In this document: positions 12,756-16,559 of the stretch, piece by piece | Layout of the letters: each line of letters starts with the position of its first letter | How positions within the stretch are numbered: the first letter of the stretch is position 1 | Assembly (NCBI GenBank): GCA_004524535.1 | Contig: SDNY01000079.1 | Coordinates: 1 to 16,559, forward strand | Source: Promethearchaeota archaeon | GTDB lineage: Archaea > Asgardarchaeota > Lokiarchaeia > Sigyniarchaeales > SOKP01 | DNA: 16,559 bases | Direction of reading: 5' to 3' | The notes under the pieces: generated by a model | What the model was told of the DNA's origin: nothing | The model's database searches: none | What the model saw: only the letters and a program-made list of their open reading frames with translations | Program-made: the position numbers and the translations under genes

Positions 12756-14573
12756 TTATTTAATATAAGCTCCAAATTGCGGGAATTTTTTCAACTGTTC
12801 AGAATTAAATATTGGTCCCTCTTTACAAACAGAGATGTCATTATTTTCTCCAACACAACATGAACCGCATAAACCAACACCACATTTCATCTTTCGTTCG
12901 AGAGAAGCTTGAACTATGATATTTTTAGATTCAGCAATGTCAAGCACTTTTTTCATCATTATTTCTGGACCACAAGTTATTATTAGATCAATTTTTTCTT
13001 TTTCTATAATTTCCTCAATTTCATCAGTAACAAAACATTTTTTTCCAACCGAACCATCATCAGTGGTACAGAACGTGTTAGGGATGAGTTCTATTAATCT
13101 TTCAGAGAAAATTAATGAAGATTCATCCTTTGCTCCAATTGCAACAAATACATTTTTTTTATTTCTCTTTAAAGGTTCAATTAACGATGTAAGGGCTGCA
13201 ATACCCATACCACCACCAACTATAAGGATATTTTGAGCATCTTCGTAGTTCCATGAATTTCCAAAAGGTCCTCTTATTCCGATATTATCTCCTTCTTTTA
13301 GCTCAAATAATTTAGCAGTGCCCTCGCCAATTTTTTGAACAGTAATTTCAATTAAATTTCCGGCAACTTTAGAAATTGACATAGGTAAGAAATCAATATC
13401 TGGAAGCCATAAAATAACAAATTCTCCAGGACGATAAGCTTGTGCTATTCTTGAACTTCTAATAACAAAACTTTTTATCTCGGGAGAGTGTTCCACGATG
13501 GCTTCTATTTTTGCAATCTCAGTTTTATTTCTTGTTATGTCTAAAATTAGTTCTTCATTATCTTTATCAAGATTTTTTACTTCAAGAATTCCTTTATTTA
13601 CAGATAAATCGAAAACTTCTTGTCCTCTTGGTGTTCTAATTATTATAGTTCTCCAGCCCTCTTCGCTACCGACATTTCCTACAGAGATATCTGCAAATGA
13701 GGCAGTATAATCAGAACACGAAAAACAAGCATGCCTGACTGAATTATCATATAAATAATTTAGAGGAATCTTTTTCTCTCCAGATTCTGTTTTAATTTTC
13801 ATTTTAAAATCGTTTTTAATTGAATTAATAGATTTAATTTCCCTCGAATTTATATCATATTCCTTGAAACATTTTGCTAATTGTTGATTATAAAAGGTAC
13901 CAAAACAAAATGTTCCAATTGCTAATGAAATCAAATCATATGCCTCAAAATCGAAGCCTGGGTGATTTTGTAATTTTCTTAAACCTTGAATTTGACATGG
14001 AGTTCCTACAATTGCTATGTCAGTAAATTCTTTGTTAATAGCATCTCCCACTAAAGAAAGTGAAGGACTTTGGCTAGGTTTATATCCTATACCTTTGAAT
14101 AAATCATTTTGGTTTTCAGCAATCATCGAAAAAGGTCTAAAATTTTCGTCTTTATCAGTTATTATTGAGGCATCAATTAAACCAGCTTCCATTGCTATAT
14201 TTAATAGAACAGTTAAGGGTCCAGCGTGTATCGGAATTTTAGCTGCTGCTTCATCAGTGAGCTTTACTGAAACAATTTTTATATAATGCCCCAAAATTTT
14301 ATCATGTTCTTTACCAAATACCCATTTATCCAAAAGATTTAATGGTATTTGATCTGTTCCGGTTTTTGGACAGACATTATAACATAAACCAAAGCCATCT
14401 CGACAAGTGTTAATATCTTTACATGATCCATCTTCTATAGGAATTTCTTTCTCAGGGTCAAATTTAATATTTGCACAAAACGCTCCACATGCCCCACAGT
14501 AGACGCATTTACCAGTTTTGATGATTTCAGAATCGAGCTCTTGCCATCCTTTTTTTACTTTTTCAATCTGCAT
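12756..14573 (-). CDS. Fusion of FrhB/FdhB-like F420-binding beta subunit and PyrK-like FAD/NAD/[2Fe-2S] electron transfer subunit
   Basis: N-part: CVYCGACGAFC, C..CP, VGTPCQI, GTFCFG, CFSCSD....ADISVG. C-part: RGPFGN, VGGGMGIA, TDDGS.G, CGPE.MM, SLERKMKCGVGLCGSC...CKEGP. ATG at 14573, 1 nt after the upstream stop, is preferred over the ORF-track start at 14594. Confidence 0.9.
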   Translation of the reverse strand: MQIEKVKKGWQELDSEIIKTGKCVYCGACGAFCANIKFDPEKEIPIEDGSCKDINTCRDGFGLCYNVCPKTGTDQIPLNLLDKWVFGKEHDKILGHYIKIVSVKLTDEAAAKIPIHAGPLTVLLNIAMEAGLIDASIITDKDENFRPFSMIAENQNDLFKGIGYKPSQSPSLSLVGDAINKEFTDIAIVGTPCQIQGLRKLQNHPGFDFEAYDLISLAIGTFCFGTFYNQQLAKCFKEYDINSREIKSINSIKNDFKMKIKTESGEKKIPLNYLYDNSVRHACFSCSDYTASFADISVGNVGSEEGWRTIIIRTPRGQEVFDLSVNKGILEVKNLDKDNEELILDITRNKTEIAKIEAIVEHSPEIKSFVIRSSRIAQAYRPGEFVILWLPDIDFLPMSISKVAGNLIEITVQKIGEGTAKLFELKEGDNIGIRGPFGNSWNYEDAQNILIVGGGMGIAALTSLIEPLKRNKKNVFVAIGAKDESSLIFSERLIELIPNTFCTTDDGSVGKKCFVTDEIEEIIEKEKIDLIITCGPEIMMKKVLDIAESKNIIVQASLERKMKCGVGLCGSCCVGENNDISVCKEGPIFNSEQLKKFPQFGAYIK

Positions 14574-14574
14574 C

Positions 14575-15231
14575 TTACTTTTTTTCACCCTCAAGTTCTT
14601 TTAAAAAATATTCTGCTTCGACTTTTCCAAGTTCAAACGCTTCTAAATTTTTTTCTAAAGTGGCTTTTGGTACAAAATTTTTGATAGTCTCAATTGCCGC
14701 TTCCTCGGAGAAAATTTTTGAAAGAGCTGTAAACGCTCCAAATAGAATTGAATTCCCATACACTGTATCTTCAAATTTTTCTAATGCCATTCGCTGAACT
14801 GGTATGCGTAAAGATTTAAATTTTTTTGCTAGCCTGAATTTATTAATTGTGGAAGGATCCCATATTAAATAGCCGGTATTATCTCCTTCTTTCAAAGAAT
14901 CTCGTTTGATATCTTTAGCAGATTCCTCAGAAAGAACAATTAAAAAATCATAAGGCATTAAAGCTTTAGGATAATCTATTTGTTTTGTGTCTCTATCCAA
15001 ATCAACCACAACTTCAGCCCAACACCTTCCACCTTTTGCTAAATCATTCGTTTATAATGATTTTCTAGCAGCGGCACTGTAAGCTTCCGTTTGAGTCGCA
15101 GCTAAATTTTCATATATCGCACTTGCCATTGTTATCATTTTGCTGAGGGTAATAACGCATACCACTTCTAACTGAAGTAATTAGAAGACTTGGCCCCCAT
15201 ATCCAGCGATTCTAATTTCGTATCTTCTCAT
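14575..15231 (-). CDS. 2-oxoacid:ferredoxin oxidoreductase gamma subunit (KorC/PorG family), split into 3 predicted exons: 15231-15189, 15158-15065, 15034-14575
   Basis: Joined exons total 597 nt and give 198 aa: MRRYEIRIAGYGGQGVITLSKMI...TQTEAYSAAARGGRCWAEVVV...N.ILFGA...NLEAFELG. The ORF track only captured the third exon. Confidence 0.92.
15035..15064 (-). other. Predicted 30-nt BHB intron 2 in the gamma-subunit gene
   Basis: TGCT AG^A AAATCATT ATAAACG AATGATTT AGCA AA^A GG: 4-bp helix TGCT/AGCA, two 3-nt bulges, 8-bp inner stem, in-frame TAA at 15054-15052. Confidence 0.88.
15159..15188 (-). other. Predicted 30-nt BHB intron 1 in the gamma-subunit gene
   Basis: GCCA AG^T CTTCTAATT ACTTC AGTTAGAAG TGGT AT^G CG: 4-bp helix GCCA/TGGT, two 3-nt bulges, 9-bp inner stem, in-frame TAA at 15183-15181. 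Confidence 0.88.
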
Positions 15232-16137: not shown

Positions 16138-16410
16138 ATGGAAGAATTTAAAGTTAATGAGTATATTACGCTGAAATTAGAGGATGGAATAACCAATATC
16201 TATATAAAGGGAGATGACTATCCATATTTGCAATGTAAATATCTCTTAATGAGAAAAACTATCAATGAAATAAAAAATCTTACTGAAAATATAAAATCTA
16301 TCGATGAATTTGCTGAACATTTAGATCATTCATTAGATCCTTCATTAGAAACAGACGAACCTGATTTGATCGATATCCCTCATGAAACCGAATTCTGGGC
16401 ACATTGCTCT
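16138..16410 (+). CDS. 5' exon of a Lokiarchaeia multicopy-family protein (N-terminal domain often preceding leucine-rich repeats)
   Basis: 91 codons: MEEFKVNEYITLKLEDGITNIYIKG...QCKYLL...IKSIDEFAEHLD...ETEFWAHCS. From recall, the family continues NLQxW; here similarity stops at 16410. Confidence 0.75.
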
Positions 16411-16559
16411 GTGCGACATGAAAGCTGTATGGTTGAATGCGGAAACTTGAGAAATAACAATATGGTAAGTCTATCTTTGAATAGACACTCAAGAAGCCGA
16501 CCTCGAGATGGACGAGTGTGGCTACCCAAGCATGCGCCATTAGTAATGATGGTGTATGA
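16411..16559 (+). mobile_element. 5' end (domain I) of a probable group II intron, truncated by the window end
   Basis: Starts with the GUGYG consensus (GTGCGACATGAAAG) exactly where protein similarity breaks. GC content visibly rises. Stems GTCTAT/ATAGAC, AGCC..CTCG/CGAG..GGCT, and a 12-bp G-U-rich stem capped by a GNRA loop (GTAA) at 16531-16558. Confidence 0.78.

Follow-up and report, generated by a model that had tools for sequence, protein, structure and literature searches.

In this study, we analysed 16,559 nucleotides (nt) of DNA (positions 1 to 16,559 of contig SDNY01000079.1, the window hereafter) from the Promethearchaeota archaeon assembly GCA_004524535.1 (genome G000), with a focus on a 30-nt insert at positions 15035-15064 of the reverse strand. 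The insert interrupts a gene of the gamma family of pyruvate/2-oxoacid:ferredoxin oxidoreductases (POR-gamma). We consider it, with a probability of roughly 0.8, to be a mini-intron of the bulge-helix-bulge (BHB) type that would be spliced from the POR-gamma pre-mRNA of this Asgard-type archaeon by the tRNA splicing endonuclease EndA and the ligase RtcB. The insert, its fold, its absence from orthologs, the co-adaptation of the flanking exons, the enzyme genes and a covarying class of similar inserts are observed, and it is from these that we infer the splicing itself.

The host gene occupies positions 14575..15231 of the reverse strand, as do all of its parts described below. Its read-through translation, with an X at both in-frame TAA codons, matches the Pfam family PF01558 (E 1e-16) and is 94% identical to the ortholog of G008, the closest relative. 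According to the Pfam match and a codon-by-codon comparison with this ortholog, the gene consists of three exons. Exon 1 (15189..15231) contains 14 codons plus 1 nt and ends within the Gly codon of a G-G-Q-G motif, and exon 2 (15065..15158) is 94 nt long and ends with the AG of an Arg codon. Exon 3 (14575..15034) extends from the last base of this Arg codon to the stop codon and overlaps the next gene (12756-14594) by 20 nt. The exons are separated by intron 1 (15159..15188) and intron 2 (15035..15064), each of which is 30 nt long and contains an in-frame TAA; intron 2 is exactly the 30-mer quoted in the first-pass annotation of this DNA. Removing both inserts yields an open POR-gamma frame of 198 codons. 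In DNA alignments, exact 30-nt gaps are found at both insert sites in three orthologs of the same genus (G008, G002 and G005), and the second gap falls after the second base of an Arg codon in a conserved A-R-G-G stretch. The insert had been described as splitting this Arg codon in phase 2. The split is borne out by the absence of the insert from the orthologs and by the restoration of the A-R-G-G codons after its removal, and the phase follows from the BHB register described below; by alignment alone, the boundary can slide by 1 nt, and removal of 15034-15063 yields an identical product. A stop within the match was found in none of the 21 relatives with a POR-gamma match among the 39 searched (G004 matched in its C-terminal part only). 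In addition, a further sample from the same study yielded a contig that covers positions 14665-15142 with 0 gaps and 4 mismatches and carries intron 2; the insert therefore does not stem from an error in a single assembly.

In the substrate of the endonuclease as described in PMC7714728, a central helix of 4 bp has a 3-nt bulge at either end, one on each strand. Intron 2 together with its exon borders has these parts, namely the helix UGCU/AGCA and the bulges AGA and AAA. The exonic strand UGCU (15067..15070) is followed by the bulge nucleotides 15066, 15065 and 15064, with a predicted 5′ cut at 15065/15064, and the intronic strand AGCA (15037..15040) is followed by the bulge nucleotides 15036, 15035 and 15034, with a predicted 3′ cut at 15035/15034. 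The inner helix is a hairpin (15041..15063) with a perfect Watson-Crick stem of 8 bp (15056-15063 with 15041-15048) and a 7-nt loop. The outer helix is weaker, as its 5′ strand CCGC (15071..15074) pairs with GUGG (15029-15032) only when 15033 is left unpaired, which results in a 4-nt 3′ bulge. The first-pass annotation had drawn the same picture from the letters alone: the perfect 8-bp stem, the UGCU/AGCA helix, the bulges AG^A and AA^A, the 3′ end of the intron complementary to the upstream exon and the outer stem with a 1-nt offset. Its suggestion of a relaxed BHB is likewise upheld, with an offset outer helix. RNAfold assigned -13.5 kcal/mol to the 61-nt context of intron 2, with the BHB shape in a one-base-shifted register, and the hairpin alone folded better than 200 of 200 shuffles (z -4.75).

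Intron 1 is built on the same plan. It forms a 9-bp hairpin, its bulges are AG^U and AU^G, and its central pairing joins the intronic UGGU to the exonic GCCA (exon strand 15191-15194). EndA cuts after the second base of each bulge. When both bulges are cut at this position, the joined exons at each of the two POR sites give the ortholog sequence, and the same rule fits the inserts in the genes for CdhA, CdhD, a histone, uL11, ArgG and a mutase, which are described next.

The two POR introns belong to a set of 11 unique inserts of 29-32 nt in G000 that share one architecture and always lie in the sense orientation. Each consists of one base, a hairpin, 4 nt that pair 4/4 with the exon bases -6 to -3, and 2 final nucleotides. 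The central helix pairs at all four positions in 11/11 cases, and the hairpin stems range from 4 to 10 bp. Two inserts have a strict outer helix (uL11 and mutase, both of which form a strict helix-BHB-helix), six have an offset one, and in three it is limited to at most 1 bp. Seven of the 11 inserts are exactly 30 nt long, the length of 4 is not a multiple of 3, and the downstream exon starts with A in 9. Gene identity was established for 10 of the 11 by Pfam scans of read-through or exon translations or by orthologs; 8 of these 10 inserts split a codon, and their exact removal recovers the conserved junction residues. Besides the POR-gamma gene, the interrupted genes encode uL11 (C188:175-204, 30 nt), which is present as a single, interrupted copy in G000; a histone (C90:712-740, 29 nt); CdhD (C8:3057-3086, 30 nt); argininosuccinate synthase, ArgG (C8:15418-15447, 30 nt); CdhA (C100:12004-12033, 30 nt); a DeoC-type aldolase (C16:3517-3548, 32 nt); an ELP3-like radical-SAM protein (C98:11116-11146, 31 nt); and the B12-binding domain of a mutase (C113:6524-6555, 32 nt). 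The remaining insert (C101:21656-21685) lies in an unnamed open reading frame (ORF) with no Pfam match and no gene-identity support.

The G000 genome is rich in hairpins and has a G+C content of 29.8%, and we compared the motif with a mirror geometry, that is, the motif as it would appear on the antisense strand. With the motif defined as a stem of at least 7 bp, a 4-bp helix and BHB geometry around a 23-nt hairpin, 129 matches were found in approximately 7.3 million strand positions, or about 2e-5 per position. Among matches that interrupt a reading frame, BHB geometry outnumbers mirror geometry by 7 to 1 in the 30-nt class, whereas the 18 other lengths total 96 against 106; five of the 7 BHB matches were judged credible and two doubtful (C114 and C161). 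ORF-merging matches numbered 56 vs 52 in the mirror control. A check that makes no use of the motif was performed with 527,506 bases of G008, of which 380,904 columns were aligned. All three G000-specific gaps of 30 nt (POR intron 2, CdhA and CdhD) proved to be hairpin inserts with BHB geometry on the coding strand, and a 29-nt gap in the histone gene follows the same plan. The gap parse did not list POR intron 1, although it is visible in the ortholog alignment.

The inserts are distributed unevenly among relatives. The ArgG intron is common to G000 and G008 and absent in G002, G005 and G004. The uL11 intron occurs at the G000 site in five genomes of the same genus, with wobble changes and one change of a central-helix G:C pair to A:U, and G092 probably carries it there as well. 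Inserts in the uL11 genes of other genomes occupy three further sites within the same ~25 codons of the N-terminal domain (four sites family-wide), with up to three inserts in a single gene (e.g., G067, G095 and G082; loci L079-L084 and L117-L136). For one of these further sites, covariation was examined in the 19 genomes whose match starts just past the site, intron-less genomes being left out. In this 28-29-nt intron, 90.4% of cells are paired, vs 26-49% with slid partners; the central helix pairs in every sequence, and RNAalifold recovers the same helix independently. Four pairs changed on both sides, and 2 of 500 shuffles reach the observed count of such cells, a figure that overstates independence because the 19 genomes are related.

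In the wider family, POR-gamma was matched in 66 of 119 other genomes. At site 1, an insert is also present in G042 and G127 (two other genera); these inserts are alike each other and unlike intron 1 of G000. A 31-nt insert in G061 and G120, located 11 nt upstream of site 2, was not counted as BHB, as no clean 4-bp helix was seen by eye in either register. At the locus itself, contigs in another study stop matching at 15034, beyond which they follow the sequence of relatives that lack the intron, and contigs of related strains (runs X1 and X2) diverge at 15060 and 15142, at intron borders, one of them continuing differently at site 2. The diverging strain contigs hint that alleles within the population differ in the content or sequence of their introns. 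The runs that carry the locus are sediment metagenomes. G008 also has a hairpin insert of its own (L034, ~12040; 8-bp stem, ~30 nt, opposite strand) at a position where G000 (C100:21306) has none; therefore, gains continue in both lineages.

The POR-gamma gene is, judging from its codon changes, under purifying selection: the ratio of non-synonymous to synonymous differences (pN/pS) relative to G008 is 0.09, and the synonymous and non-synonymous changes number 24 and 5 on the G000 branch and 16 and 2 on the G008 branch. The G000-specific exon changes, most of which are synonymous, cluster at both intron sites, and 9 of the 29 codon changes on the G000 branch lie within 6 codons of the two introns. 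The outer pairing of intron 2 was partly built by such synonymous changes, and the strict 5-bp outer helix of the mutase intron depends on them. When exons were swapped in silico, the pair probability of the central helix of intron 2 was 0.49-0.97 with the G000 exons and 0-0.69 with those of G008, G002 and G005; for intron 1, the corresponding values were 0.81-0.85 and ~0. The earlier proposal was that the intron had been either adapted to its site or generated from it; the idea of adaptation holds in the form of an exon-intron co-adaptation, given the G000-specific exon changes and the weakening of the central helix upon exon swapping.

The enzymes that such splicing would require are encoded in the genome. 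G000 contains one RtcB gene (C101) and two EndA paralogs (PF01974) of 201 amino acids each. The copy on C100 keeps the context of the catalytic His, and the copy on C84 has a Ser aligned to the catalytic His of the M. jannaschii enzyme (solved chain 1a79). Determination of the EndA subunit architecture had been suggested as a check, and this pair, one copy with the catalytic His context and the other with Ser in its place, points to the heteromeric type. According to PMC5829648, Asgard archaea have an (alpha-beta)2 EndA with an L1 loop; heteromeric EndA has been linked to relaxed motifs (PMC5829648, PMC7714728), and the (alpha-beta)2 form is reported to tolerate varied bulge lengths (PMC7714728). 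In G000, ARAGORN detects 12 tRNA genes (8 with introns) and RF00005 detects 15 in a genome estimated to be 99% complete. Most of its tRNA genes are probably too interrupted for detection, and the low count fits the heavy tRNA interruption reported for some Asgard families (bioRxiv 10.64898/2026.10.13.758758).

From these elements, the following mechanism can be proposed for intron 2. The UGCU at the end of exon 2 would pair with the intronic AGCA, the 8-bp hairpin would stack on one side of this helix and the weak exon-exon helix on the other, and the stacked pairing would expose the bulges AG^A and AA^A. A heteromeric endonuclease composed of the catalytic C100 paralog and the His-less C84 paralog would then cut both bulges after the second base, and RtcB would ligate the exons. 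The AGA codon for the Arg of A-R-G-G would thereby be remade and the TAA lost. Intron 1 would be processed likewise.

Several observations weigh against this interpretation. None of the 24 sequencing runs listed for the locus is recorded as RNA, and splicing is deduced here from DNA. Genome-wide, the bare motif is about as frequent as its mirrored form (5379 vs 5345; with the 23-nt hairpin, 129 vs 108). The 61-nt context of intron 2 only modestly beats shuffles (z -1.96; 8 of 200 fold as well), its outer helix requires the 1-nt offset, and the predicted cut position has its sole support here in the fit to ortholog-defined junctions. In the 119 other genomes searched, no insert was seen at site 2; besides G000, a single contig of the same study has intron 2 there, and therefore there is no covariation for intron 2 itself. 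In addition, where translation is coupled to transcription, a ribosome could arrive at the TAA of a still unspliced transcript. Finally, the genome contains seven POR-family paralogs, and therefore this POR-gamma copy could be dispensable.

The last point leads to the view that two small palindromic insertions killed a dispensable POR paralog and that their BHB-like shape is incidental. Both inserts do bring stops, intron 2 is limited to one lineage, and chance hairpins are abundant in AT-rich genomes. However, the gene has no lesion besides the two inserts and regains its open frame of 198 codons without them, and the low pN/pS and the prevalence of synonymous changes on the G000 branch are not those of a decaying gene. 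The full sense-oriented motif is present in both inserts at a background of ~2e-5 per position each, and synonymous changes in their flanks build the helices. Moreover, the same elements interrupt single-copy uL11 as well as ArgG, CdhA/CdhD and histone genes and are conserved between species, and we regard loss of the gene as improbable. An error of assembly or sequencing, for which the 198-contig metagenome assembly with 4.4% estimated contamination might provide an occasion, is of negligible probability, as intron 2 recurs with 0 gaps in the second-sample contig and similar inserts occur in separately assembled genomes of other species.

If the gene is alive and the insert real, the interruption might also be overcome without EndA. 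Hairpins are part of known bypass signals, and ribosomes might hop over an insert that stays in the mRNA; the short length of the inserts, mostly exactly 30 nt, their hairpins and stops and their location inside conserved genes would suit such translational bypassing. At neither POR insert, however, is there a matched take-off/landing triplet or a border direct repeat of more than 1 nt, and no take-off codon adjoins the TAA of intron 2, which comes four codons after the junction. With 8 of the 10 inserts in identified genes splitting codons, the conserved residue is recovered only by exact removal at the RNA level, and bypassing leaves unexplained the 4-bp exon-intron helix in 11/11 inserts, the two symmetric bulges and the helix covariation. 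We consider bypassing very unlikely. Genuine excision by another agent, either a hairpin-recognising endonuclease or removal at the DNA level, could account for an outer helix that is weak or absent in several of the 11 inserts (the 6 with an offset and the 3 with no more than 1 bp), for the narrow range of 29-32 nt and for the A-rich 3′ bulge; EndA is not known to require either of the latter two features. Nevertheless, the parts that all of the inserts share are those that define a BHB, namely the 4-bp helix and two opposite 3-nt bulges of the correct handedness, and the uL11 and mutase introns are strict helix-BHB-helix structures. The reported tolerance of (alpha-beta)2 enzymes for varied bulge lengths (PMC7714728) also counts against another agent; no search for other candidate enzymes was made. 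An agent other than EndA thus appears improbable to us, and splicing by EndA and RtcB is the reading that we prefer.

Two classes of genetic elements were considered and rejected as the source of the inserts. A mobile element resembling miniature inverted-repeat transposable elements (MITE) or repetitive extragenic palindromes (REP) is contradicted by the lack of similar copies and of a visible target-site duplication. In searches of the genome, each of the 11 inserts significantly matches itself alone, and other matches are at most 24 nt long with E >=0.013; we found neither a source copy nor a duplicated target nor a repeat family that would reveal the origin of the inserts. A group I or group II intron is contradicted by the length of 30 nt, compared with a ribozyme core of hundreds of nucleotides, and, at gathering score, Rfam matches neither the window nor C188:1-3000.

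A number of other candidates were set aside. A screen for in-frame stops gave 3976 candidates, of which 252 matched the motif; most of these matches were hairpins made of A and T only and located at the ends of genes. The clean-looking 30-nt matches on C161, C173 and C180 were dropped because they lie upstream of start codons, the match on C114 because it is AT-only, and those on C17, C61, C110 and C90:8476 because Pfam support was missing or the match was below threshold. Further candidates on C84, C116, C194, C138, C4, C181, C158, C165, C39 and C188 (two) and a 32-nt G000-specific gap on C121 stand outside the count of 11. The interrupted histone (C90 in G000; L068, 488-733) has a Lys/Ala/Pro-rich N-terminal tail of ~20 residues. 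Its unspliced frame stops 7 codons into the intron and would give a C-terminally altered variant.

In the remainder of the window, the gene that overlaps the 3′ end of POR-gamma (12756-14594, reverse strand) encodes FrhB/FdhB-like domains fused to a PyrK-like NAD-binding and Fe-S domain, and, within the window, the gamma gene has no neighbour that encodes an alpha or beta POR subunit. The window also encodes a small GTPase of the Gtr1/RagA-Arf type, and ARAGORN finds no tRNA in it. This GTPase and the sediment origin of the runs point to an Asgard-type organism, which probably resembles the Lokiarchaeia. At its end (~16411-16559, forward strand), an ORF that begins at 16138 enters a G+C-richer stretch starting with GTGCG. 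In this stretch, a weak match to the group II intron family RF02012 (17 bits, E 0.13) is truncated by the contig end; the assembly may have been broken here by a group II intron, of which only the 5′ end is included.

Taking the inserts of this genome and its relatives together, we find it reasonably probable that an Asgard-type family carries proliferating BHB mini-introns of ~30 nt in its protein genes. Conserved motifs would have received such introns over and over at their G/C-rich codons; a single gene would acquire as many as three, and one site would sometimes be used by unrelated sequences. Synonymous changes in the flanking exons would then strengthen the splice motif. Extrapolating from 5 lineage-specific inserts in the 381 kb compared, approximately 48 would be expected per 3.66 Mb, i.e., tens of introns per genome. 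If these inserts are spliced, mRNA splicing is obligatory for many genes, including those for uL11, histone, ArgG, the CO-dehydrogenase/acetyl-CoA synthase subunits and POR-gamma, and the mini-introns could gate the translation of central metabolic and ribosomal genes. Split protein genes would then be frequent in a prokaryote closely related to eukaryotes, which bears on how such genes arise and persist under coupled transcription and translation. It also bears on intron gain, as the missing copy source presents the same puzzle as the Asgard tRNA introns. There are practical consequences as well: gene calling in Asgard genomes will report such genes as truncated or as pseudogenes, and metabolic reconstructions will count them as broken. 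The inserts also constitute a directly testable set of substrates for an (alpha-beta)2 endonuclease.

Short inserts that interrupt coding sequences have been described in other systems. Bypass elements, such as those of T4 gene 60 and the byps of a yeast mitochondrion, are short hairpin inserts with stops in conserved genes and have matched take-off and landing codons, with a stop or hungry codon right after take-off. Matched codons of this kind are absent at the POR inserts, whose codon-splitting junctions need removal at the RNA level. In the coding mRNAs of HAC1 and XBP1, a protein endonuclease excises a very short intron independently of the spliceosome, and in animals the ends are joined by an RtcB-type ligase. 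This unconventional IRE1/RtcB splicing of eukaryotes (named in PMC13149111) differs from the case presented here in its nuclease, in its RNA signal, in being regulated by stress and in having one target gene.

Closer parallels come from archaea. In the pre-mRNA of cbf5 in Crenarchaeota (Desulfurococcales/Sulfolobales), splicing of an intron has been shown experimentally (PMC2738675, PMC10485636), and, as these sources describe it, the likeness extends to a host with a heteromeric (alpha-beta)2 EndA and to both gain and loss among related species. However, cbf5 is one gene in one lineage, whereas here at least 10 genes are interrupted in one Asgard-type genome, one of them by two inserts; the inserts have a uniform build of 29-32 nt and occupy several sites per gene across relatives, and their splicing is predicted. 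In Haloferax volcanii, the tRNA splicing endonuclease cleaves the HVO_1309 mRNA at BHB sites (PMC7714728). As reported there, that intron lies in the 5′ untranslated region and has a canonical motif, at which a homodimeric enzyme cuts, whereas the inserts described here lie in coding sequences and must be removed exactly for the protein to be made. Asgard tRNA genes contain BHB introns with a median length of 22-23 nt, which were gained repeatedly in a lineage-specific manner and for which, according to the same account, no route of arrival has been identified (bioRxiv 10.64898/2026.10.13.758758). These introns share the presumed enzyme and the motif and are of similar size, but their hosts are tRNA genes, and the word mRNA does not occur in the main text of that preprint. 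A review from 2023 considered it likely that more archaeal mRNA introns spliced by the endonuclease would be found (PMC10485636). The archaeal mRNA precedents named in the literature as cited here are cbf5 and HVO_1309 only, and full-text searches of the open-access literature found no report of BHB introns in protein-coding genes of Asgard archaea. The kind of intron is already known, and what is new is the host lineage, the number and type of the interrupted genes, the uniform build of the mini-introns and the co-adaptation of their exons.

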